NCBI GenBank assembly: GCA_047633135.1
Contig: JBLIES010000001.1
Location: forward strand, 3,749 to 67,748
DNA length: 64,000 bases
Reading direction: 5' to 3'
Origin: Roseivirga sp.
Lineage (GTDB): Bacteria; Bacteroidota; Bacteroidia; Cytophagales; Cyclobacteriaceae
Positions 3,555-15,791 of this stretch are shown one piece after another (the first letter of the stretch is position 1; each line of letters opens with the position of its first letter). A program made the position numbers and the translations under genes. The notes below the pieces were generated by a model. It made no database searches. It was not told the origin of the DNA and worked only from the letters and a program-made list of their open reading frames with translations.

Positions 3555-4229
3555 TTAATGTCTATTATCAGAATCGACTGTACCATCCACAATATTGATT
3601 GTCCTTTTGCCATAAGCCGCATTTTCTTTGGAATGGGTTACTTGAACAATCGTCATTCCTTCACTATTCAATTTTTGGAAAAGCTTCATGATTTCTTCTG
3701 CCTGATCAGAGTGTAAGTTACCTGTTGGCTCATCTGCCAATAAAAGCTTTGGTTGCCCAATTAATGCCCTTGCCACTCCAACCAATTGCTGCTGTCCACC
3801 AGAAAGTTGCTCTGGGAAGAGGTCTTTTTTAGCTACCATCTGAAATCTATCAAGCATTTCTGCTACTAAAGATTTTCTCTCGGCAGATTTCACTCCTTTA
3901 TACAAAAGTGGGGTTTCGATGTTTTCATAAACTGTCAATTCATCGATTAGATGATAGGCTTGAAATACAAATCCTATGTGGTGCTTATGAAGTTCTGAGC
4001 GCTTGCGCTCTTTCATTTTATGAATCGGCTCATCTAAGAAGTAGTATTCTCCCTGAGAGGGTTCGTCTAACATACCAATGATATTCATGACCGTAGATTT
4101 TCCGGCACCGCTCGGCCCCATAATGGTCACGAATTCACCCTGTTCTATATTGAGATCAATGCTTTTTAAAATGAATGTTCTTTGATATTTAGAATCGACA
4201 AACTTATCGACATCACGTAGTTTAATCAT
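3555..4229 (-). CDS. ABC transporter ATP-binding protein (LolD/MacB type)
   Basis: Walker A GPSGAGKS, signature LSGGQQQ, Walker B LLLADEPTGNL. Start placed at MIKLRDV (4229) rather than 4259. Confidence 0.93.
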   Translation of the reverse strand: MIKLRDVDKFVDSKYQRTFILKSIDLNIEQGEFVTIMGPSGAGKSTVMNIIGMLDEPSQGEYYFLDEPIHKMKERKRSELHKHHIGFVFQAYHLIDELTVYENIETPLLYKGVKSAERKSLVAEMLDRFQMVAKKDLFPEQLSGGQQQLVGVARALIGQPKLLLADEPTGNLHSDQAEEIMKLFQKLNSEGMTIVQVTHSKENAAYGKRTINIVDGTVDSDNRH

Positions 4230-4260
4230 TGTTCTGGGTTTAATTGCGACCAACAGCATT

Positions 4261-4278
4261 TACCAATTAACATGCCAA
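4261..4278 (-). promoter_or_regulatory. Candidate sigma54 (-24/-12) promoter
   Basis: Minus strand TTGGCATG-TTAA-TTGGT matches the TGGCACG-N4-TTGC spacing, with C to G at -12. Phased GTTC repeats lie upstream at 4331, 4341 and 4351. Confidence 0.55.
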
Positions 4279-4370
4279 GGGCTAATTTATTCATACTTAG
4301 CATTTAAGCAAAGCTTGACTTAAAAATAGCGTTCGTTTTCGTTCAATTAAGTTCGATTTTGAAACGCTCT

Positions 4371-6776
4371 TTAGTCAATTCTCAAAGCATTCACGGGATT
4401 TGACCTTGCGGCTTTCCATGTTTTTAAACTGATGGTAATTAAAGCGATCATTAGCGCTCCCATTCCTGCTACAAGAAAGGTTAAAATCGTGAGATTAATC
4501 TTAAATGCAAAATTCTGCAACCACCAAGTAGAAAGATAATAAGCCATAGGGGACGCGATCAAAAAGGCGATTAAAATCAATAAAGCAAAATCCCTAGAAA
4601 GCAATAATAATACTTGAGCGATAGATGCCCCTAAGACTTTCCTAATCCCAATTTCTTTGATTCTTTGTTCGGTAGAAAATGAGGCCAAACCAAATAAACC
4701 CAAGCAAGCAATGACCATGGTAAGCAGTGCAAAAAGAATAACCACCTTACTCAATTGAGCCTCGTTGCTGTATAGCTCATTCAAATCATCTGATAAAAAC
4801 GAATAATCAAATGGCTGCTCTGGTGCGAAGTCATTCCACAAGGTGCTGGCTTGTTGAACTACATTTTTGCTTGCTCCTTCGCGATAGCGCACATACAAAT
4901 AAAGGTATGAACCAAAGAATGGGGCATAAAAAGTAGATTCTGTTTTGCGTTGAAGCGGTTCGAAATTAACATTTTCGACCAAACCAATGATCCATTTATT
5001 AACCCACTCATTGCCTTGCCTAATTTGGATCATTTTGCCAATTGGATTTTCTCCCATGTTTAACTCCAAGGCCGCTTGTTGATTAATAATAATGGACTGT
5101 GTAGAATCGTTCGGAATCTCAGCATCAAAATCACGCCCCTTTATTATTGAAATGCCAAAGGTTTTCATGTAGTCAAAATCTACATTGATCCCCGCTAAAC
5201 TCAGGTTGTCCTCATCGTCAATTACCGTTTCGGACTGAATAAATATGATGGGCCTTAAGCCCCCAGGTTTACTAAAAGAAGCCGCTACAGATTCTACTCC
5301 AGTATTTTTTAGAAGTTCATTTTTAAATGCGCTCAAACTGGGGGTCAGCGCGTTTCTGGTATTAGAAATCACGAGCATATTATCTTTTTGAAAACCCAGC
5401 GATTTGTTTTGCATAAAATTCAGCTGTTGATACACTGTGTAAGTACCAATGGTAAGCGCTATGGAAATGGCGAACTGAAAAACGACAAGCGCCTTTCTTA
5501 AACTACCAGAGCTATTCATTCCTGGGGCCATTTTACCCTTAAGCACTACCGCGGGCTTAAAAGAAGATAAAAATAAGGCTGGATAAATCCCCGAACCAAA
5601 ACCAACCACTAAAATAATGATCAATAATAAGCCAAATACTTGCCCACTGAACAGCATGTCTAAAGTGAGGGCCTTTCCGGTAAACTGTGCCATGAACCTT
5701 AACATAGCCGCCACTATAGCAAAAGAAAGAACAGCAGAAAAGGCAGTAATGAGTATCGACTCCCCCATAAATTGACCAATCAATTGCTCTTTATAAGCAC
5801 CCAATACCTTTCTAACACCCACTTCTTTTGCCCTTTTGGCAGAACGTGCTGTCGCTAGATTCATATAGTTGATGGCGGCTATCAATAAAATAAAAACCGC
5901 AATGGCAGAAAAAACATAGACTGAATCTAGATTACCGTTCGGGGCCATCTCATTCCGAAGGTTGGATTTAAGGTGAATATCCGTCAGCTTAATGAGGCTT
6001 GGATTAACATTATTCCTTGCACTCTCCTCTACATTTTTATCTCTAAGGGTAATCAGTTTTTCCTCCACTAAGGCGAAGTCTTGAGGGGATCTTAACTTAA
6101 TAAAAGAGAAGAATCCTCCTCCACGCCAATTCTCTAATCCATTAGGGTTATTGGGGGTTTTCAGGGTTTCATTCGAGAGTAAAATTTCAAATTTGAGATG
6201 TGTATTTGCGGGAAGGTTTTCAAAGACACCGGTGACAATAAACCGTTGATCTTGATTGCCCTTTAACTCTAGTATTTCTCCTATAACATTGACTTTTCCA
6301 AAGTATTTAACGGCTGCTTTCTCACTTAAAACTGCTTGCAAAGGAGCCTGGAGTAGATTAACAGGGGAACCAAAAATCAATTTAAAATTAAAGAATTCGA
6401 AAAAATTGGGATCCGCATAGAATAGCTGGTCTTCCTTGAAAATCTCATTCCCAATCTTAAAGATCACTTGCTGTCCACCACCATTTAGGCGGGTATAGGC
6501 TTCGACTTCGGGTACTTCTCTCAACAATGCTGGACCAAAAGCAGAGGGTCCGTTGGGGTATTTGTATACACCGGTACTCAGGTTGAGTGCGTTGTCTATT
6601 CGAAAGATATTTTCTGCTTTTTTATGGAATTGATCGAAACTCAATTCGAATTTAACGACCAAGAAGATCAACAGAAAACAGGTGATGCCCAGCGTTAATC
6701 CGAATATATTGATTGCGGCATAACCCGGCTGCCTAACGATACCTCGGACGGCAATTCTAAGATAGTTTTTAATCAT
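4371..6776 (-). CDS. ABC transporter permease, MacB/FtsX family (duplicated architecture)
   Basis: MIKNYLRIA..R start, INYMNLATARSAKRAKEVGVRKVLGA, and second-half RIKEIGIRKVLGAS. Confidence 0.93.
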   Translation of the reverse strand: MIKNYLRIAVRGIVRQPGYAAINIFGLTLGITCFLLIFLVVKFELSFDQFHKKAENIFRIDNALNLSTGVYKYPNGPSAFGPALLREVPEVEAYTRLNGGGQQVIFKIGNEIFKEDQLFYADPNFFEFFNFKLIFGSPVNLLQAPLQAVLSEKAAVKYFGKVNVIGEILELKGNQDQRFIVTGVFENLPANTHLKFEILLSNETLKTPNNPNGLENWRGGGFFSFIKLRSPQDFALVEEKLITLRDKNVEESARNNVNPSLIKLTDIHLKSNLRNEMAPNGNLDSVYVFSAIAVFILLIAAINYMNLATARSAKRAKEVGVRKVLGAYKEQLIGQFMGESILITAFSAVLSFAIVAAMLRFMAQFTGKALTLDMLFSGQVFGLLLIIILVVGFGSGIYPALFLSSFKPAVVLKGKMAPGMNSSGSLRKALVVFQFAISIALTIGTYTVYQQLNFMQNKSLGFQKDNMLVISNTRNALTPSLSAFKNELLKNTGVESVAASFSKPGGLRPIIFIQSETVIDDEDNLSLAGINVDFDYMKTFGISIIKGRDFDAEIPNDSTQSIIINQQAALELNMGENPIGKMIQIRQGNEWVNKWIIGLVENVNFEPLQRKTESTFYAPFFGSYLYLYVRYREGASKNVVQQASTLWNDFAPEQPFDYSFLSDDLNELYSNEAQLSKVVILFALLTMVIACLGLFGLASFSTEQRIKEIGIRKVLGASIAQVLLLLSRDFALLILIAFLIASPMAYYLSTWWLQNFAFKINLTILTFLVAGMGALMIALITISLKTWKAARSNPVNALRID

Positions 6777-6867: not shown

Positions 6868-8091
6868 TTAGAAGATATAGAATTTCTGCTGATCATCTGG
6901 TGGAAAGAATAGCATAGCACAAACAAAGGCTAATATAGCAAGCACAAAGCCAATCATAAAAATGGTGTAGGCAATCCTAAGCAGTTTGTACTTCTTCCCC
7001 AATACTACACCAAGAAAGTAAATATCCTTAATCATACTGCCATAAAGGTATTCGCTATCTTTCATCATTTCCTTCATGCCCCATTCATACCTGTCCAGTT
7101 TCATTTTATGAAAATTACCGAAGAACAACAGGTTAGTTTTCTTTGCCAATACCTCGTCATCGGTAAACATACCAGAAGAAATATTTGGCCTAGTGGCGAG
7201 AATCGACATAACAATAGTCGCCAAACATACGATGACCAACATCACCGTAGGCACTATAAGGTTAGGGTATTCGTATAGTTTTCTGATCAAGACAGAAACC
7301 ACAACCGAAAGAATAATTGTGTTGACAGAGATCATAATGTTGGCTTTATTATCAGCCATTCCACTCAACTCAAGATGATTTTTCGATGTCGTTCGAAACA
7401 TTGTTTCTATCCCTCTGTCAGGCTTTAAAACCAGTTTACCTTCGAGCTTACTCACCTTGGCCTCGAGCTGACTTATGTAATCATCATTAATACTCTTTTT
7501 CGCCTTTTTTTGCTTTTTAATCGTTTTCAAATTTTTCTTTTTTAAAGGCTCTAGCGCAGCTTTTCCGTAAGGCGTAAAAAACTCATGCGATTTAAAGAAA
7601 TTGAAATTCATAATATTCCAATCTTCCTTATTAATTTTTTGACCCTTCATGATCTCAACTTCACTATGCATTTTTTCTGCCATCATTTCGTAATCCTGGC
7701 AGGCCAAATGATTGAGGTCTGCATCGCACAAAACTTCTTCAGTCAAATTCTGAGGATTTTGAGGCATTTGAGTTGCCATAATACAGCCGATCACCGTATC
7801 AATTTTAGGGTATCCCTCTTTTGTCAAAAAATCTTTCGCAATTTGGGCACTCACTTTTTCATGATGTTCACAACCTTCTTTATAACCAGTGTCATGAAAC
7901 CAAGCAGCAATAATCACCGATTCTAAATCCTCCTCTGAAAGCATCGATGCCTTACCTATATGCAGCGAAGCCTCTACTACTCTCTGGGTATGGTAAAGAT
8001 CATGGTAAACGAACTGCGAAGGAATCTCTGTCTTGAGAATCAATTCACAGTGCTCTTCTACTCGTCTTAAAAGTGCAGATTGATCAATCAT
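6868..8091 (-). CDS. HD-domain phosphohydrolase fused to a PycTM/DUF5706 membrane domain
   Basis: YHDLYHT, WFHDTGY and LCDADL HD motifs; Lys-rich linker; C-terminal ADNKANIMIS, NLLFFGNF and KKYKLLRIAY with three hydrophobic helices. Confidence 0.85.
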   Translation of the reverse strand: MIDQSALLRRVEEHCELILKTEIPSQFVYHDLYHTQRVVEASLHIGKASMLSEEDLESVIIAAWFHDTGYKEGCEHHEKVSAQIAKDFLTKEGYPKIDTVIGCIMATQMPQNPQNLTEEVLCDADLNHLACQDYEMMAEKMHSEVEIMKGQKINKEDWNIMNFNFFKSHEFFTPYGKAALEPLKKKNLKTIKKQKKAKKSINDDYISQLEAKVSKLEGKLVLKPDRGIETMFRTTSKNHLELSGMADNKANIMISVNTIILSVVVSVLIRKLYEYPNLIVPTVMLVIVCLATIVMSILATRPNISSGMFTDDEVLAKKTNLLFFGNFHKMKLDRYEWGMKEMMKDSEYLYGSMIKDIYFLGVVLGKKYKLLRIAYTIFMIGFVLAILAFVCAMLFFPPDDQQKFYIF

Positions 8092-8174: not shown

Positions 8175-9017
8175 ATGACCATGAACTTTAGAACCATGAT
8201 ACCTCTTATTATAGTATGTCTGACCCTTACTTTTTCTTCCACCGCTCAGAATAAAGAGCAATTCCCCTATAACTTAGAAGCACCTGATGACATCTATCTG
8301 ATGCCTTCGGTACTTGAGGAAATCTCTGGCCTCTCCTACTTTGGCCCCAACCAATTGGCCGCTTTAAATGACGAGCATGGCCGAGTTTACATTTATGACA
8401 TAAAAGAAAGAAAAATCGTTCAACGCATTCGCTTTGAGGGTAATGGCGATTTCGAAGGCTTAGAATTAGTGGGTAAAGACATGTTTGTAATCAAAAGCCA
8501 CGGTAAAATGTTTCGTTTTAATATCGACATTGATGGCGTAGTAGAGACCATAGAAAGTCCTTTCAGTTCAGAAAATAACCTTGAAGGCCTTGGGTATGAT
8601 AAAAGCAGCAATAATTTATTGATTGCCTTGAAAGAGAGTGGCGACATTAAAAATGTGAATGTAAAAGGTAAAGCTGTTTATGGCTATAACCTTGACTCGG
8701 AAAGTTTTTCAAAAAAACCTCTATTTGTTTTAAGAGATGCCGATTTAGAAAGAGTTTTAGGTGCTAAAAGCACCAAACTAAGGCCTTCAGGAATCGCTGT
8801 GAACCCTATCAACGGAGACATTTATATGATCGCCTCCGTTGGTCGTGCCCTAGTGGTCTTTGATAAGTCTGGTAAGCCCAAAAACCTAACGATTTTAAAG
8901 AGGAGTATATTTCCACAACCAGAAGGAATTACTTTTACCCCCAATGGCGATCTATTTATTGCCAACGAAGTAGATGGTGATGGAGGAACAATTCTCAGGT
9001 TTGAAATGAAGAAGTAA
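8175..9017 (+). CDS. Secreted SdiA-regulated-like beta-propeller protein
   Basis: Signal peptide, then repeated blades (EISGLS, DFEGLE, NLEGLG, PSGIA, QPEGITF). Start at 8175 or 8181, just after a TATTTTTG (-7) element at 8162-8169; the 8073 start would overlap the divergent gene. Confidence 0.8.
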   Translation: MTMNFRTMIPLIIVCLTLTFSSTAQNKEQFPYNLEAPDDIYLMPSVLEEISGLSYFGPNQLAALNDEHGRVYIYDIKERKIVQRIRFEGNGDFEGLELVGKDMFVIKSHGKMFRFNIDIDGVVETIESPFSSENNLEGLGYDKSSNNLLIALKESGDIKNVNVKGKAVYGYNLDSESFSKKPLFVLRDADLERVLGAKSTKLRPSGIAVNPINGDIYMIASVGRALVVFDKSGKPKNLTILKRSIFPQPEGITFTPNGDLFIANEVDGDGGTILRFEMKK

Positions 9018-9078: not shown

Positions 9079-12000
9079 ATGAAAACTCGTTTCATCAGTA
9101 TACTCTTTTTAATCGCTATAAGTGGAGTAAAAACCTTCGGTTATCAACAAAGCGCAGTACCTATTCACTCCGTTTTTCTTGTGGGTGATGCTGGCGAACC
9201 AATAGAAAACCCTGTACTCATCTTATTAAAAAAGGAATTAGCCTTGCTTGGAGATAAGGGCACGGTAGTCTATTTGGGCGATAATATTTACCCTAAGGGT
9301 ATGCCTCAAAAAGGAGACAAACTACGTGCTGATGCTGAAAAAGCAATTAATGGGCAAATTGAGGCTGTTAAAGACTTTGATGGCAACAAATTTTTCATCC
9401 CTGGTAATCACGACTGGTCGAAAGGAAGAAACGATGGAATTGAATGGCTCGCCAGGCAAGAAAATTACGTTGAAGATAGGTTAGACAGTCAAGATGTCTG
9501 GATACCCTCCCGCGGTTGCCCAGGACCCACAGAGATTAATTTAACTGAGCAGATTACGCTGATCGTTATCGATACCCAGTGGTTTTTACACAAAGGAACA
9601 AAGCCTGAAGAAGGCTCGGATTGCGATGCAATTAGCAAAGAAGAGCTGGTGGCTAGTTTTCAAGATGCCCTCTTGAGAAATGCTACGAAGAAGGTGATTG
9701 TAGCATCACACCATCCCATGTATACTTATGGTATACATGGGGGAGTATTCAACCTTAAAGACCATCTATTCCCACTCACAGCATCCAAAAAGACCAAGTG
9801 GCTCTATTTACCTTTGCCAGGCATAGGGTCTATCTATCCACTTTATAGAAAGTGGTTTGGAAATATTCAAGATACGTCTCACCCAATTTATCAACAGTTC
9901 AGAGATGCCATGGTGACTTTGATGAAACAGCATCCCGACATTGTACACGTAGCTGGCCACGAACATGCTTTAGAGCATATTCAAAAAGAAGGAATGAACT
10001 TTATTGTGAGTGGGGCTGGTGCCAAAAATAATGCTCACGTTAAGCAAAAAGATGACGCAAAATTTGCCACCAATACAATTGGCTACGCCAGACTAGATTA
10101 TTTCGCGGATGGACGTACTGAGCTAAAATTTGTAACCCCCGTAGAGGGCAGTACAAAGGAACTTTATTCTACCAATATTTCTACAAAGCCTTTTCTTCCC
10201 AAGCCAGAAAGCCTGATGGCTAAATATTCAAAAATCAGCTTTGAAGGAAAAGACACTATTTTTCCAGCCAGTGAGCTTTATCATATCCGTAGCAAATTTC
10301 ACATTAGTATGTTCGGAGAAAACTATCGTAAGGAATGGGCCAGCCCAATGAAAGTACCGATTTTTGATATTGCTACAGAAAAAGGTGGATTAAAAATACT
10401 TCAGCGTGGAGGTGGTCACCAAACCATTTCTTTAAGATTAGAAAATAAAAAGGGTAAGCAGTTTGTCTTGAGGTCTATGGATAAAAATCCAGCATTAACA
10501 TTGCCACCTGAGCTGAGACAGACCTTCATAAAATCAATTGTACAAGATGGTATTTCAGCATCACATCCTTACGCTCCTTTTGTAATTCCGGCACTGGCCG
10601 ATGCGGCTGGAATATACCACACCAACCCAAAAGTAGTTTTTATTCCTGACGACCCTCGCTTTGGGATCTACAGGTCTGCGCTGGCCAATTCTTTAGCCCT
10701 ATTCGAAGAAAGGCCTAATAAAGAAAATATAGAAGAAGAATTTTTTGGAGATGGTGACGATGTTGAATCCAGCATTGATCTGTATGAATCACTTAGAAAT
10801 GACAATGATAATCACGTTGATCAAGTATTTGTCACCCGAAACAGGCTCTTCGATTTTTGGTTAGGCGATTGGGATAGGCATGACGACCAGTGGCGATGGG
10901 TAGAGTATAATAAAAAAGATGATGAGAAGCTTTACCGTCCTATTCCCAGAGATAGAGATGTAGCTTTCTTTGCTGGCGAGGGCCTTTTCAAAAAAATAGC
11001 TTCTTCAAAATGGGCACAACCCGCACTTAGAGGATTTCATGATGACATTGATTACGTGCCTGGCCTTGGGGCTTACAGAATCCGCTATTTTGATAGAATT
11101 TTCATGACCGAAGTTTCTCTAGACAGTTGGATTGAGCAAGCAAATGAGCTCAAGGCCGCACTCACTGACGAAACAATAGAAACAGTCATTAGACAGTGGC
11201 CTGATGAAATTTATGATTTGAGTGGAGAAGAAATCATTAGGAAACTCAAAAACAGGCGCGACAACTTGGATAAGTATGCACGTGAATATTACCTATTTAT
11301 TTCTAAAACGGTCGATGTCTTAGCAAGCGATAAACGCGAACTATTCAAAATTGAGCGCTTAGATGATGAAAACACGAAAGTCACCGTCATTAAGATTTCG
11401 AAAAAAGGAGCGATTGATCAAGTGATTTATCAACGTACTTTTAAATCTTCTGAAACGGAAGAAATTCGATTATTCGGCTTCGATGGAGAAGACCGATTCG
11501 AAGTGTCCGGAGAGGTGAACGATGGAATCAAAGTGAGAATAATTAGCGGTGATGATGACGACATAATCATTGATAATAGCACCGTAAAGGGCTGGAGTAA
11601 AAAAACCATCGTGTATGATAATGTCAAAGGAACCCAGCTTACGAGCAGTGGAGAAACAAAAAACCTGACCTCTGATAAGGACACAGAAATCAACAGATAC
11701 AACCGACAAGAGTTCGATTTTGACATAATTTCGCCTGTAGTTTCATTCGATTATAACCCTGATGATGGGCTGTTTCTAGGAGGTGGGATAACGATCAAAA
11801 AAGATGGGTTCAGAAACGAGCCCTATCAATCTAAACAGACGATTCAAGGTAATTATGCTCTTGCCACCGCATCTTACAGCCTGTCCTATGATTTAGACAT
11901 TATAGATGCATTTGGTAAGGCAGACTTTTCTTTTAGGGGGGATGCAAAAGTGCCCAACTTCGTAAATAACTTTTTTGGATTAGGCAATGAAACCACCTTT

Positions 12001-12768
12001 GATGACGACCTCGAAAGGACATTTCACAGAACTAGATTTGAAGAGTTCAACCTAAGACCCACTGTCAATTTTAACTTGGGGCCTAAGTTTACTTTAAATA
12101 TTGGCCCAACTTTCAGAGCTGTTGAGATTGAAGAATCCAACGATCGCTTTATCCGCGTTTTTGCCAATGGCGGGGGCCTCGGGGACAATCTTTTTGAACA
12201 AAAGTTATATGGTGGAGCAACGATTGGTTTCCATTTTGATAGCCGCGATGACGCCCTCATTCCTAAGAATGGAACCGTATTTAATGCCACCTACGATTAC
12301 AGCAACGGACTGAACGATGCCTCTTTTAACAGTGCGCAATTTAAGACAGACGTCACCTTCATTTGGTCTTTTAGAGAGCCTTCTCGGACTACTTTTGCAA
12401 CAAGGATCGGCTATCAAAAGAGTTTTGGTGATTTCGAGATTTTTCAATCTGCCCAACTCGATGGATTCAATACGTTGCGAGGTTACAGACGGTATAGGTT
12501 TTCTGGTGAGAGCAGTTTCTATCATCAATTCGATATCAGGATAAAGCTGTTTGATTGGCAATCTTACTTTTTACCCTCCCAGGTGGGCTTAATCCTTTTT
12601 AATGATGTTGGTCGTGTTTGGGTAGATGATGAAGATTCGAATACCTTGCACCACGGGTATGGAGGCGGATTATTCATTACGCCATTCAATTTTGCAACCA
12701 TCACAGTTTTAGCCGCGGCTTCAAAGGAAGGCGTAAGTCCATTATTAAAATTTGGTTTCTTTTTCTAA
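9079..12768 (+). CDS. Outer-membrane protein: metallophosphoesterase + atypical kinase-like domain + Omp85/BamA-type barrel
   Basis: Signal peptide; GDAG, GDNIY, GNHDW, VASHH and GHEH phosphoesterase motifs; GGGHQT, GDWDRHDDQW and IPRDRD in the middle; beta-strand-rich C-terminus with TLRGY loop motif, ending KFGFFF. Confidence 0.85.
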   Translation: MKTRFISILFLIAISGVKTFGYQQSAVPIHSVFLVGDAGEPIENPVLILLKKELALLGDKGTVVYLGDNIYPKGMPQKGDKLRADAEKAINGQIEAVKDFDGNKFFIPGNHDWSKGRNDGIEWLARQENYVEDRLDSQDVWIPSRGCPGPTEINLTEQITLIVIDTQWFLHKGTKPEEGSDCDAISKEELVASFQDALLRNATKKVIVASHHPMYTYGIHGGVFNLKDHLFPLTASKKTKWLYLPLPGIGSIYPLYRKWFGNIQDTSHPIYQQFRDAMVTLMKQHPDIVHVAGHEHALEHIQKEGMNFIVSGAGAKNNAHVKQKDDAKFATNTIGYARLDYFADGRTELKFVTPVEGSTKELYSTNISTKPFLPKPESLMAKYSKISFEGKDTIFPASELYHIRSKFHISMFGENYRKEWASPMKVPIFDIATEKGGLKILQRGGGHQTISLRLENKKGKQFVLRSMDKNPALTLPPELRQTFIKSIVQDGISASHPYAPFVIPALADAAGIYHTNPKVVFIPDDPRFGIYRSALANSLALFEERPNKENIEEEFFGDGDDVESSIDLYESLRNDNDNHVDQVFVTRNRLFDFWLGDWDRHDDQWRWVEYNKKDDEKLYRPIPRDRDVAFFAGEGLFKKIASSKWAQPALRGFHDDIDYVPGLGAYRIRYFDRIFMTEVSLDSWIEQANELKAALTDETIETVIRQWPDEIYDLSGEEIIRKLKNRRDNLDKYAREYYLFISKTVDVLASDKRELFKIERLDDENTKVTVIKISKKGAIDQVIYQRTFKSSETEEIRLFGFDGEDRFEVSGEVNDGIKVRIISGDDDDIIIDNSTVKGWSKKTIVYDNVKGTQLTSSGETKNLTSDKDTEINRYNRQEFDFDIISPVVSFDYNPDDGLFLGGGITIKKDGFRNEPYQSKQTIQGNYALATASYSLSYDLDIIDAFGKADFSFRGDAKVPNFVNNFFGLGNETTFDDDLERTFHRTRFEEFNLRPTVNFNLGPKFTLNIGPTFRAVEIEESNDRFIRVFANGGGLGDNLFEQKLYGGATIGFHFDSRDDALIPKNGTVFNATYDYSNGLNDASFNSAQFKTDVTFIWSFREPSRTTFATRIGYQKSFGDFEIFQSAQLDGFNTLRGYRRYRFSGESSFYHQFDIRIKLFDWQSYFLPSQVGLILFNDVGRVWVDDEDSNTLHHGYGGGLFITPFNFATITVLAAASKEGVSPLLKFGFFF

Positions 12769-12770
12769 AG

Positions 12771-15700
12771 TTAGAGGTCTGGTAGGTCAATCGTAAAAAC
12801 GGTGCCTTTACCCAATTCTGATTGATAAGAGATGGTTCCGTTATGGATTTCTATAAACTGCTTGACTATTATTAGACCTAAACCCGTTCCTTCAATATCG
12901 CCTACATTGCTGGCTCTTGAAAAGGATTCGAAGAGGCCCTTTTGATCTTTGTCGGGAATACCAATTCCGTAATCTTTAATGTCAATATTCACCCCTACTT
13001 TTTTGAAGGTAATGATGATTTCTGGATCAGTTTTTTCTGATGAATATTTCAGCGCATTATTGACCAAGTTGGACAAGGCATGGCTAATAAGTTGACTATC
13101 CAAATTTACATGTCTTTCTACTCCGACTATTTTTATGGCAACGTTTCTCGTTTTATTTACCACTCTATTGTCTTGAACCACTTGATTTATAATCCCCACC
13201 AATGAGGTAATGTCCTTCTTAAGTTCTGTTTTCCCAACATCGAGCCTTCCTAAAGTAAAAACATCTTTGAGTAAAGAATTCATTCTTTGTAACTCGGTTC
13301 TGATTCTACCAACGTGCTTTTTTAATTTCACATTTGGTTCTGGATCAGAATCCAAATACATATTGATGAGCTCATTACTAGACTGAATGGTCGTTAATGG
13401 CGTACGGAACTCATGAGAGGCCATGGAGATAAAACTAGACTTCAACTTCCCTAATTGACGCTCTTTTTCAAGGGCCTTAATTCTTTCTGAAATATCTCGT
13501 GTGGAGGATTGTAAATAAAGGAATTTACCTGCACTATCTTCTATCGAACTATAAGAAGATTCTACCCAAAGCCAATCCTTGCTTGATGATTTTATCCGGT
13601 AAGTGGCTTTTACGTTTTTCCTTTTATTCTCAATCGTTTGGTCCATGATTGTAAGAATAAAAGTCTTCTCATTTGGATGAATTAAATCGGCAAACTTTTT
13701 TCCTAAAAGGCTTTCTGGTTCAAAGTTCAACAGGTATTTTAAGGAAGGTGATATGAATGAAATCTTTCCCTCAAAATCTTGTAATGCGATTACGTCTCCG
13801 GAGTTTTCTGATACTAACTTATACTGTTCTTCCTTTTCTCTCAGTTTTTGCTGTGTTAAAACCTTATCGGTAATATCTCTTTTGTTACTTCGTACAAAGA
13901 TTATCTCTCCATTTTCATCGAGAATAACCCCGCCCTGAGCCTCTAGCCATCTCCATTCACCCTTTTTGTTTTTAAATCTAAAAATAGCTTTGCCATCCTT
14001 AGTCTTATTCTTTAGTGTTTCTAACATATCTAGTTCAACCCTCTTGAGGTCATCTGGATGGACATGTATTGTAGGTGATGTTCCTATTAGTTCTGAAACT
14101 TCATACCCCAAAATATCTTTCACAGAGGGCGAAACAAAATCGTATACCCCTTGCATATTAATGAGGGTAACAATGTCGTTTGAGTTTTCCGTGATGAGCT
14201 TATAGCGCTCTTCGCTTTCCTTTAACCTTTTAGCTGCAACAACTCTTTCGGTTACGTCTCGTGTCGAGGTAAGTAAATAGAGTGGATCGCCATCGGTATC
14301 TGTAATAAGGCCTCCTCGGGTTTCAAGCCATACGTCTTGCCCCTCTTTATGCCGCACTTTAAAGGTGACATTGGCCATTTTGGTTTTTTGCTGCAACACC
14401 GTAACCATGGCTTTTGAAACTTGAATAAGAGAATCCTTACCCATAAATTCTCTTAACCTCAGCCCTTGCAATTCATTGGACTCGTAACCAACAATATCTT
14501 TGCTTGAAGGGCTAACAAAGACAAAGGCCCCGTCAGGGCTTTGTAAACAAATACAATCACTTGAGTTTTCAGAGATGAGCTTATACTTGGCTTGACTTTC
14601 TCTTAACTTAGACTCGGTTAACTTTAAGGAAGAGATATTGGAAAGCGACCCTACAATTCTTTTAGGTAGTCCATTGGCCCTATAAATAATTTTAGCCTTA
14701 ATAAAGACCCAAATAACGTTCTCATTTCCGCCAATAAACCTAGATTCTACCTCTAGTTCCTCTTCTTTATCATCGAATTTATTTCTGATTTTTTGTATAA
14801 AATCAGCTCTATCTTCTTCGTGAATAAACTTGGCCAACAAGTTACTATCCAGTGGGTTTTTTTCTGGAGGTAAACCCATCGTTCCCCAAAATTGAGGTGA
14901 AAAGTAAGAGGTCCCACTCTTAAAGTCATACTCCCAAATCACATCATTAGTACCTTCTACAGCGAGTTGGTATCTTTCATTACTCACTTTTATTTCTCGT
15001 TCCAATGATTTGCGAACGGTGATATCCTGTAGAATCGTGATGTGGCATTCTTCATTTTGAAAATCCAAAGGCATGGTAGAAGCACTTACCCAATACGATT
15101 CCCCCTTTTTGTTTTTGAGTAAAAGCTCATGGTTCTGAACCGTTCCCTTTTTCAACAGCTTTTCAAGGTATGATTTCCTACCTTCGAAGTTCTGGTAAAA
15201 CTGAAGCACTTTATTTCCTAAGAATTCATTTGGCTGCATGCCATACACCTTAAAGAGCACTTCATTTGCGAAAATAATAACTCCACTCTTTTTTGTCGAA
15301 ATAAATACAGGATCAGGCAAAGCATCTACAATACTTTTAAGTCTCTGCTGGCTGAGTTCTAAGTTTCTGCGCGATCGCCTAATGTCATCGATATCAAAGG
15401 TAATCCCATCTAATCGGAGCGGTTTTTCGTCTTTATAGAGCACATTAACTCTATCTCTGACATAGCGGTAATTATTCTCTCCTCGGAGCGTTCTATAAGA
15501 GTAACTGCCATAGCCGTTGTTCAACACATTGACTACCTCATCCAAAATTCTTTCCTGATCCTCGGGGTGGATCATCGTTTGCCACTCTTCTATTGTGGCT
15601 GGAGCCCTGGTATAGAGATTACCTGGAGTTCGCCTCAACGGATTATTTAAATATATAATTTGATATGGCTCAACTGTTAAATCGATGCTCCATACAACTT

Positions 15701-15791
15701 CTGAAAGGTTTTGAACAACTGACTCATAACTTAGGTTTTGTCTGTTTGAATCTGGTATTTCGCGCATTGTACCCTCAAAAACGTTTTGCAT
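12771..15791 (-). CDS. Cytoplasmic multi-PAS sensor histidine kinase
   Basis: About six PAS/PAC repeats (IHPED/VHPDD), H-box SHEFRTPL, N-box NLVNNALKYS, G-boxes DYGIGI and GTGLGL; no transmembrane segment. Confidence 0.93.
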   Translation of the reverse strand: MQNVFEGTMREIPDSNRQNLSYESVVQNLSEVVWSIDLTVEPYQIIYLNNPLRRTPGNLYTRAPATIEEWQTMIHPEDQERILDEVVNVLNNGYGSYSYRTLRGENNYRYVRDRVNVLYKDEKPLRLDGITFDIDDIRRSRRNLELSQQRLKSIVDALPDPVFISTKKSGVIIFANEVLFKVYGMQPNEFLGNKVLQFYQNFEGRKSYLEKLLKKGTVQNHELLLKNKKGESYWVSASTMPLDFQNEECHITILQDITVRKSLEREIKVSNERYQLAVEGTNDVIWEYDFKSGTSYFSPQFWGTMGLPPEKNPLDSNLLAKFIHEEDRADFIQKIRNKFDDKEEELEVESRFIGGNENVIWVFIKAKIIYRANGLPKRIVGSLSNISSLKLTESKLRESQAKYKLISENSSDCICLQSPDGAFVFVSPSSKDIVGYESNELQGLRLREFMGKDSLIQVSKAMVTVLQQKTKMANVTFKVRHKEGQDVWLETRGGLITDTDGDPLYLLTSTRDVTERVVAAKRLKESEERYKLITENSNDIVTLINMQGVYDFVSPSVKDILGYEVSELIGTSPTIHVHPDDLKRVELDMLETLKNKTKDGKAIFRFKNKKGEWRWLEAQGGVILDENGEIIFVRSNKRDITDKVLTQQKLREKEEQYKLVSENSGDVIALQDFEGKISFISPSLKYLLNFEPESLLGKKFADLIHPNEKTFILTIMDQTIENKRKNVKATYRIKSSSKDWLWVESSYSSIEDSAGKFLYLQSSTRDISERIKALEKERQLGKLKSSFISMASHEFRTPLTTIQSSNELINMYLDSDPEPNVKLKKHVGRIRTELQRMNSLLKDVFTLGRLDVGKTELKKDITSLVGIINQVVQDNRVVNKTRNVAIKIVGVERHVNLDSQLISHALSNLVNNALKYSSEKTDPEIIITFKKVGVNIDIKDYGIGIPDKDQKGLFESFSRASNVGDIEGTGLGLIIVKQFIEIHNGTISYQSELGKGTVFTIDLPDL

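Follow-up and report, generated by a model that had tools for sequence, protein, structure and literature searches.

A predicted kinase-like domain, conserved across Bacteroidota, lies between a phosphatase-like domain and an Omp85-type barrel

What lies between the two recognizable ends of a large Omp85-type protein of Roseivirga sp., and is it an enzyme? The question is raised by the open reading frame at 9079-12768 (+), which encodes 1229 residues and is the only long frame in that region of the window, by which we mean the whole 64,000-nucleotide stretch that was analysed (positions 3,749 to 67,748 of contig JBLIES010000001.1, assembly GCA_047633135.1). On the whole protein, Pfam recognizes Metallophos at residues 60-223 and Omp85 at residues 946-1190 only, and residues 375-893 give no match even at E<=10. 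NCBIfam returns Omp85-type models only, with none for the middle domain, and no PDB sequence match to this domain was found with phmmer or with a 148-sequence profile, which matched the barrel 9ccg only. The nearest named homologues are Roseivirga proteins labelled 'metallophosphoesterase' or 'BamA/TamA family outer membrane protein'. A preliminary description of this DNA had placed an overlooked kinase or phosphotransferase between the two ends, and had listed nine motifs in the N-terminal and middle domains. All nine are present, but the nucleotide positions given for the middle-domain motifs were 3-9 bases off: RGGGHQT starts at 10405 and not at 10408, GDWDRHDDQW at 10864 and not at 10873, and PIPRDRD at 10939 and not at 10942. 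The layout of the gene is as follows.

9079..12768, plus strand: the whole gene; 1229-residue protein with signal peptide, purple-acid-phosphatase-like metallophosphoesterase, kinase-like domain, RTX-like turns and Omp85 barrel
9079..9141, plus strand: signal-peptide-like N-terminus (MKTRFISILFLIAISGVKTFG), recognized by eye from the sequence
9160..10203, plus strand: purple-acid-phosphatase-like metallophosphoesterase domain, residues ~28-375 (GDAG, GDNIY, GNHD, ASHH, GHEH; Pfam PF00149)
10216..11403, plus strand: kinase-like (HipA/CtkA/PI4KII-like) domain, residues 380-775, ~390 residues (AlphaFold2 and Foldseek)
10405..10425, plus strand: Gly-rich loop RGGGHQT, residues 443-449, between beta1 and beta2 of the model
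10462..10491, plus strand: beta3 strand FVLRS (starts at residue 462; R465), followed by the invariant K469
10699..10716, plus strand: LFEERP strand (E543/E544), aligned with the HipA hinge AVE234RF
10864..10893, plus strand: catalytic-loop motif GDWDRHDDQW (starts at residue 596; D599, H601, Q604)
10939..10959, plus strand: PIPRDRD (starts at residue 621; D625/D627), at the metal-Asp position of HipA D332, the DFG equivalent
11452..11574, plus strand: two RTX-like GGxGxD turns (LFGFDGEDRF and IISGDDDDIIID), residues 792-832, from the family consensus
11713..12768, plus strand: Omp85-type beta-barrel, residues ~880-1229, with C-terminal FGFFF (Pfam PF01103)

The first answer comes from the predicted structure. 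AlphaFold2, given an alignment of 148 sequences with 28-80% identity to the query, yields a model of residues 380-775 with a mean predicted local distance difference test score (pLDDT) of 95.8 and a predicted template modelling score (pTM) of 0.93; from a single sequence, residues 368-799 reach a pLDDT of 35 and the model is unusable. In the former, a small beta-sheet is followed by a long helix, two strands, a helix running into a loop, a beta-hairpin and a helical bundle, and this order fits a bilobed kinase-like core. Foldseek against the PDB gives 18 matches at E<=1e-3, all of them HipA-family kinases. Helicobacter CtkA is at the top (3akl/3akj/3akk; best E 1.5e-5, template modelling (TM) score 0.53 on the target), and the others include the bacterial Ser/Thr kinase 7vkb/7wcf/7vkc, HipA (1.8e-4) and HipT. 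Just below that threshold stand PI4KIIalpha (4hnd; 1.7e-3, TM 0.40/0.45), Rio2, DAPK, ADCK3, PINK1 and mTOR, and all PDB matches that score meaningfully have kinase-like folds. Against BFVD, which holds predicted viral structures, the best matches are PI3/4-kinase-like phage proteins at E about 1e-6. The kinase fold that the preliminary description had foreseen is thus what the model and its leading matches depict. The prediction supports placing the middle domain in a new family of the protein-kinase-like superfamily, with HipA/CtkA and type II PI4K as the nearest folds, and outside HipA_C and CotH in their present definitions.

HipA, CtkA and HipT (PF07804; PDB 3akj/3akk/3akl, 3dnu, 3tpv and 7ab3) are the best matches of the predicted fold, and five of their motifs recur in the middle domain in unchanged order: a Gly-rich loop (GxQ), a basic beta3 residue, an ER hinge, a G-x-x-D-x-H-x-x-N/Q motif and a P-x-x-D motif. 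As reference for a by-residue comparison we used E. coli HipA from NC_000913, in whose sequence the published functional residues S150, K181, E234, D309, N314 and D332 were located. The motif order is common to both proteins: RGGGHQT stands opposite S150-VAGAQEK, FVLR465 opposite IIK181, LFEERP opposite AVE234RF, WLGDWD599RH601DDQ604W opposite WLIGATD309GH311AKN314F, and YRPIPRD625RD627 opposite YRLTPFYD332, so that the counterpart of D332 is either D625 or D627. The Arg in place of the beta3 Lys and the Gln in place of Asn, to which the preliminary description had drawn attention, fit this register at K181 and N314. When profile is aligned with profile, the Gly-rich loop, hinge and catalytic loop fall into this register again, without statistical significance.

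The differences from the HipA/CtkA/HipT group are nonetheless considerable. There is no significant sequence or profile similarity (no PF07804 HipA_C match in the middle region at E<=10), Lys and Asn are replaced by Arg and Gln, and the kinase core of the middle domain is followed by a helical extension of about 120 residues. HipA is a cytoplasmic toxin, whereas the protein described here carries a signal peptide and an Omp85 fusion and would be extracytoplasmic. No HipB-type antitoxin gene adjoins it; the neighbours encode a beta-propeller and an HD-PycTM protein. The same genome holds two genuine CotH genes and one HipA_C gene, which obtain strong Pfam scores and serve as internal positive controls, and the silence of Pfam on the middle domain therefore represents real divergence and not a fault of the tool. 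These control genes lie at C63:1872-3011, C46:10818-11765 and C146:6808-7557 of the genome (G000), and the two CotH-family proteins occupy frames of 473 and 751 residues. Homology of the middle domain to HipA or CotH is not claimed from sequence alone.

The fold matches outside the HipA family bear on another explanation, namely a kinase for lipids or small molecules, of the type II PI4K kind. Together with the phosphatase it would work on phosphorylated lipids of the outer membrane, for instance lipid A, inositol lipids or sphingolipids. The better PDB matches include PI4KIIa, the phage PI3/4-kinase-like proteins lead BFVD, DRHDDQ equals the DRHxxN catalytic loop of PI3K/PI4K apart from the N-to-Q change, and the protein is tethered to the outer membrane. 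However, the middle region has no PF00454 (PI3K/PI4K) match in Pfam, its N-lobe motifs and its register of P-loop, hinge and catalytic loop are nearer to HipA, and no lipid-metabolism genes recur in the neighbourhood; we consider this explanation distinctly unlikely.

Of the family labels proposed in the preliminary description, the HipA-like and PI4K-like ones agree with the predicted fold, while the CotH label did not survive. A divergent CotH-family member would be a secreted, ATP-dependent protein kinase like spore-coat CotH. CotH kinases (PF08757) and the middle domain are indeed both secreted atypical kinase folds (here a predicted one) with DWD/PxDxD-type motifs; hhalign sets DWDRH on the CotH nWD and PIPRDRD on its iPwDxD, and a CotH protein ranks 6th in BFVD (E 1e-3). 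Moreover, the pel operon of Streptococcus intermedius contains a secreted CotH-like kinase beside a VTC-like polyphosphate polymerase and a membrane protein (bioRxiv 10.1101/2024.04.20.589940). Yet the middle domain has no PF08757 match at E<=10, while the two true CotH genes of the genome reach 203 and 146 bits with this model. The hhalign probability against a profile of 31 Bacteroidota CotH domains is 4.5%, and CotH structures are absent from the top 50 PDB fold matches, which CtkA and HipA dominate. With negative profile tests and a nearer fold elsewhere, CotH membership was rejected, and we regard it as highly improbable.

A predicted fold does not tell whether the domain could be catalytic, and the residues themselves are more informative. 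Conservation was computed on an alignment of 387 homologous domains, down to 27% identity. D597, R600, R626, D627, K469, R589 and D592 are invariant; R465 and D625 are each found in 386/387, D599 in 96% and H601 in 98%. Position 604 is Q in 377 and N in 10 and never anything else, the Gly-rich loop residues G444, G445, Q448 and T449 are 96-99% conserved, and further conserved polar positions are G413, R417, W420, D490, E543 and D672. The conservation of DRH and PRDRD, on which the kinase proposal had been made to depend, is therefore close to complete, and the middle-domain motifs are not due to chance. Among full-length proteins, the combination D597-D599-R600-H601-Q604 is exact in 211/212, and D599 or H601 is lost only in a few forms that have no phosphatase domain. 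The phosphatase metal ligands are less constrained, being lost in about 5-20% of homologues, which identifies the kinase-like domain as the core of the family and the phosphatase as an accessory.

These data also weigh on the possibility that the domain is a pseudokinase, i.e. a kinase-derived fold that serves without catalysis as a rigid binding or scaffold module in place of the Omp85 POTRA domains. The beta3 Lys is always Arg (386/387, with the invariant K469 four residues on), Gln replaces the catalytic Asn, ATP is scarce outside the cytoplasm, where the domain would lie, no POTRA was found by sequence, and a few relatives without the metallophosphoesterase (MPE) lack D599 or H601. Against this, the catalytic loop and the metal site usually decay in pseudokinases, whereas here D597, R600, D627, R626 and K469 are invariant. 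The D-D-R-H-Q set is kept more strictly than the phosphatase metal ligands, and the only two residues tolerated at position 604, Q and N, are both able to ligate metal. A non-catalytic scaffold is thus unlikely in our judgement. The middle domain retains a complete set of HipA-type residues at its putative active site (GxQ Gly-rich loop, basic beta3 residue, ER hinge, D-R-H-x-x-Q/N and the presumed PRDRD metal site), from which we infer an active phosphotransferase outside the cytoplasm and not a spacer.

Where would such an enzyme be held? At the N-terminus, PF00149 scores 24.5 bits (gathering cut-off 21.5), and the five purple acid phosphatase motifs named in the preliminary description were recovered at residues 36-39 (GDAG), 67-71 (GDNIY), 109-112 (GNHD), 208-212 (VASHH) and 293-296 (GHEH). 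All five metal-ligand motifs of purple acid phosphatases/TRAP, including the GDxxY tyrosine, are thus found, and the mammalian enzyme 1ute is a weak PDB sequence match (E 0.019). The domain differs from these phosphatases in being fused and membrane-tethered, and in that its metal ligands are kept in only about 80-95% of full-length homologues (n=208-209; D37 in 169/209, D68 in 177/209 and H296 in 172/209).

At the other end, PF01103 scores 32.8 bits on the barrel against a cut-off of 24. NCBIfam NF047779 matches it at E 3e-23, yet under that model's whole-protein cut-off, and a family profile matches the barrel of PDB 9ccg at E 3e-10. The Omp85 loop-6 motif LRGY is found at residues 1133-1136. 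No POTRA was found by sequence: PF07244 gave no match in the full protein (E<=1) or in residues 375-893 (E<=10). A POTRA-less Omp85 barrel would anchor the phosphatase and the kinase-like domain in the outer membrane.

Between the kinase-like domain and the barrel the family consensus reads LYGLxGxDxF...GGxGxDxxxD. Many homologues carry a perfect GGxGxDxUx just ahead of the barrel, and similar turns are also seen at the C-terminus of stand-alone lipoprotein forms. These RTX-like turns give no Pfam match and may be a calcium-dependent folding element.

The fusion of a metallophosphoesterase to Omp85, which the preliminary description had called a known architecture, corresponds to the 'Metallo' subfamily of Omp85 (PF00149 plus Omp85; Heinz & Lithgow 2014, PMC4104836). 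That study, the one published classification of the subfamily, took PF00149 for a metalloprotease and weighed a periplasmic against a surface topology; the middle domain went unnoticed in it, and the subfamily was considered genus-restricted. The 'Metallo' subfamily has the same architecture as the protein described here, and its barrel clusters with POTRA-less Omp85 proteins; the family that we find is, in contrast, phylum-wide. Papers on Riemerella OMP76/Omp85 and on a metallophosphoesterase were also considered and proved unrelated to the phosphatase-kinase-Omp85 architecture.

A further parallel is offered by the type Vd autotransporters PlpD and FplA, in which a patatin passenger, a POTRA and an Omp85 barrel follow one another. 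An N-terminal enzyme joined to an Omp85-type barrel is common to both, and the RTX-like turns stand just before the barrel, where autotransporters carry an autochaperone. They differ in that two large passengers are present here and no POTRA is detected by sequence. The N-terminal domains of Omp85 proteins usually face the periplasm, while the passengers of type Vd autotransporters face the cell surface.

How widespread is the middle domain? A word-indexed search returned 2472 relatives, and an exhaustive HMMER search of cluster representatives returned 2572 clusters at E<=1e-3. Three architectures recur: phosphatase, middle domain and Omp85 (~1230 residues); middle domain and Omp85 (~860 residues); and the middle domain alone (~400-540 residues), in some cases with a lipobox (LEGC in P0268, LTGC in P0208). 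By a crude regular expression, the N-terminus resembles a signal peptide or carries a lipobox in most members of each architecture, and these secretory-type N-termini indicate an extracytoplasmic location. The domain is present in 81/201 sampled Bacteroidota genomes (40%) and in 40/108 genera, with at least 595 loci among GTDB species genomes. It is thus a large family, phylum-wide in Bacteroidota and relatives and usually single-copy, and the kinase-like domain would be the ancient and most constrained part of the protein.

Two loci deserve separate mention. In Rufibacter hautae (L067:3256-6593) two stand-alone kinase-like copies of 529 and 530 residues lie adjacent and divergent, without the usual partner genes. 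The sole match labelled as gammaproteobacterial (Halioglobus sp.) is a 6.1-kb contig, JBLHWH010000298.1 (L132), of a metagenome-assembled genome (MAG). Since this contig is short and also carries the HD-PycTM gene, contamination during binning is more likely than a true transfer.

The genes that accompany this family were then compared between loci. Two of them flank the gene in the window.

8175..9017, plus strand: secreted SdiA-regulated/YjiK-like beta-propeller with signal peptide MTMNFRTMIPLIIVCLTLTFSSTAQ, 61 nucleotides upstream (Pfam PF06977, E 7e-11)
6868..8091, minus strand: 407-residue protein, HD at the N-terminus and a PycTM membrane module of Pycsar-effector type at the C-terminus, divergent (PF18967, E 1.5e-37, and PF01966)

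No terminator is seen in the 61-nucleotide gap between the propeller gene and the main gene, and the two are probably co-transcribed; a promoter and terminator scan gave counts equal to those of shuffled sequences and was uninformative. Linkage was counted in two samples, in both cases within 8 kb of the gene unless a gene is said to adjoin it. In the first, 23 full-length loci taken from contigs encoding homologues and from whole genomes of different genera, HD-PycTM is found at 17/23, the propeller directly upstream at 9/23, PPK1 at 4/23 and a class III nucleotide cyclase at 11/23. The second comprises 80 loci from GTDB species that were found by the pattern [GNS]DWDRHx[DG]Q, and its taxa include Cytophagales, Chitinophagales, Sphingobacteriales, Marinilabiliales/Bacteroidales, Rhodothermales and one Chlorobiota MAG. 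At its 49 loci with full flanks and full architecture, HD-PycTM is present in 44, PPK1 in 23, the propeller in 19 and a class III cyclase in 15. The propeller keeps its position in about 40% of relatives. A genome holds only 1-2 PycTM genes; from the sizes of the genomes and of the interval searched, we put the probability of such proximity by chance at below about 1% for each genome. Gene order is variable; in a common layout [PPK1 <- HD-PycTM] diverges from [propeller -> phosphatase-kinase-Omp85], and elsewhere all genes are on one strand. The MPE-less loci are mostly without these partners (present at 2/8, and also lacking at L066 and L067). In genomes with two PPK1 genes, the linked copy is the lower-scoring, divergent one.

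The cyclases near these genes take several forms. At eight loci of one Bacteroidota family (L077-L084), a gene of 650 residues with Guanylate_cyc and TPR lies directly downstream of the Omp85 gene, a form counted among the 11 of the first sample; in the example at L078:4602-6554 (-) the N-terminal class III nucleotide-cyclase domain is followed by C-terminal TPR repeats. Other families have different cyclase architectures nearby, such as a response regulator-cyclase in L064.

The PycTM module raises the question of phage defence. The partner gene has the same membrane module as the Pycsar effector PycTM (PF18967), and a class III cyclase is often nearby. However, it is single-copy and vertically conserved, its module is joined to HD and not to a cyclic nucleoside monophosphate (cNMP)-binding domain, and its linkage is to PPK1 and genes of the envelope. 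On these grounds we rejected phage defence of the Pycsar type as the role of the neighbourhood, since the genes do not lie in variable islands and the gene set is conserved across orders with identity tracking taxonomy. HD-PycTM instead suggests a housekeeping use of a membrane domain known from phage defence; a literature search on HD+PycTM and DUF5706 returned nothing relevant.

On the established ground of domain composition, predicted fold, residue conservation, secretory-type N-termini in most members, phylum-wide spread and gene linkage, we read the protein as an outer-membrane-anchored enzyme in which a phosphatase and an active, extracytoplasmic kinase-like phosphotransferase are carried on an Omp85 barrel, within a conserved envelope gene set. 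We put the probability of this reading at roughly 0.6; catalysis, the donor, the substrate and the membrane side that the enzymes face are its inferred parts. The inner-membrane HD-PycTM protein and the Omp85 protein would form the core of the set, frequently joined by the periplasmic YjiK-like propeller, by a class III nucleotide cyclase and by PPK1, the last often as a second paralogue. The phosphatase-like and kinase-like domains, to which the preliminary description had ascribed opposing activities, would act on the same extracytoplasmic substrate, most likely in a system that handles envelope phosphate, polyphosphate or nucleotides.

Several points weigh against this reading. The Foldseek TM-scores are modest (0.3-0.54), and hhalign against self-built HipA profiles of 27-30 sequences gives probabilities of 17% and 0.65%. 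The Arg for the canonical beta3 Lys and the Gln for the catalytic-loop Asn could mean a pseudokinase or a non-kinase chemistry, and a supply of ATP in the periplasm is not known. Several of the sampled loci come from the same genera (e.g. Hymenobacter and Pontibacter), and the linkage counts therefore overstate independence, although the linkage nonetheless spans several orders. Finally, neither PPK1 nor PPK2 was detected in the genome of the window (92% complete), and a complete genome of the same genus contains two tandem PPK2 genes and likewise no PPK1. With PPK1 absent from both Roseivirga genomes, a role of polyphosphate here cannot depend on PPK1, and the window accordingly holds a trimmed gene set of HD-PycTM, propeller and Omp85 protein. 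In a Roseivirga-like MAG whose domain is 75% identical, PPK1 does lie beside HD-PycTM.

What could power phosphorylation at this site? Enzymes with a kinase fold are rarely found outside the bacterial cytoplasm, and how they are supplied with energy is a recognized problem. One speculative answer, already raised in the preliminary description, is polyphosphate as the phosphoryl donor, for which the linkage to PPK1 offers circumstantial support. In this scheme polyphosphate, or another high-energy phosphate compound, would be made and moved across the inner membrane by the PPK1 paralogue and HD-PycTM. Outside the cytoplasm it would serve the Omp85-tethered HipA-like domain as donor in place of ATP, and the phosphatase would reverse or trim the reaction. 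Arg for Lys, Gln for Asn and the invariant R417, R465, R589, R600 and R626 would be adaptations to a polyanionic donor. The S. intermedius CotH cassette mentioned above is similar in linking an extracytoplasmic kinase-like protein to a polyphosphate-making enzyme and a small membrane protein; it differs in its kinase family, in having VTC where PPK1 is found here, and in that the present system belongs to a diderm with an Omp85 anchor. As a whole the polyphosphate scheme is decidedly doubtful, but if true it would be the first polyphosphate-driven enzyme with a protein-kinase fold, and an answer to how phosphorylation is powered in an ATP-poor periplasm. A link to phosphate starvation (Pus/Pho) was dropped, as the literature shows the calcineurin-like enzyme encoded at pus1 of F. 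johnsoniae to be another protein.

In the literature we found no paper that describes the middle domain or its domain combination. The unannotated kinase-like family and its predicted extracytoplasmic, Omp85-tethered context are new, and the conserved gene set around it is undescribed. A strongly conserved, phylum-wide domain without a Pfam or NCBIfam model has been hidden under the labels 'metallophosphoesterase' and 'BamA/TamA family protein'. The genes tightly linked to it, HD-PycTM and often also a nucleotide cyclase and a second PPK1, mark out an envelope module that can be tested, and they suggest a housekeeping role for the 'Pycsar effector' membrane domain. D599, D625/D627, R465 and K469 are concrete residues for mutation, and tractable relatives are at hand for tests of extracytoplasmic phosphorylation and of a possible connection with polyphosphate.

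Two further features of the window border this region.

3555-6776, minus strand: MacB-type ABC exporter pair (FtsX/MacB_PCD permease and ABC ATPase), downstream of HD-PycTM
12771-15791, minus strand: histidine kinase of 1006 residues with multiple PAS domains, converging on the 3' end of the main gene with 2 nucleotides between the stops

The exporter pair stands where relatives have PPK1. The histidine kinase occupies the same place in three other loci (L068, L089 and L090) and is conserved within the genus only.

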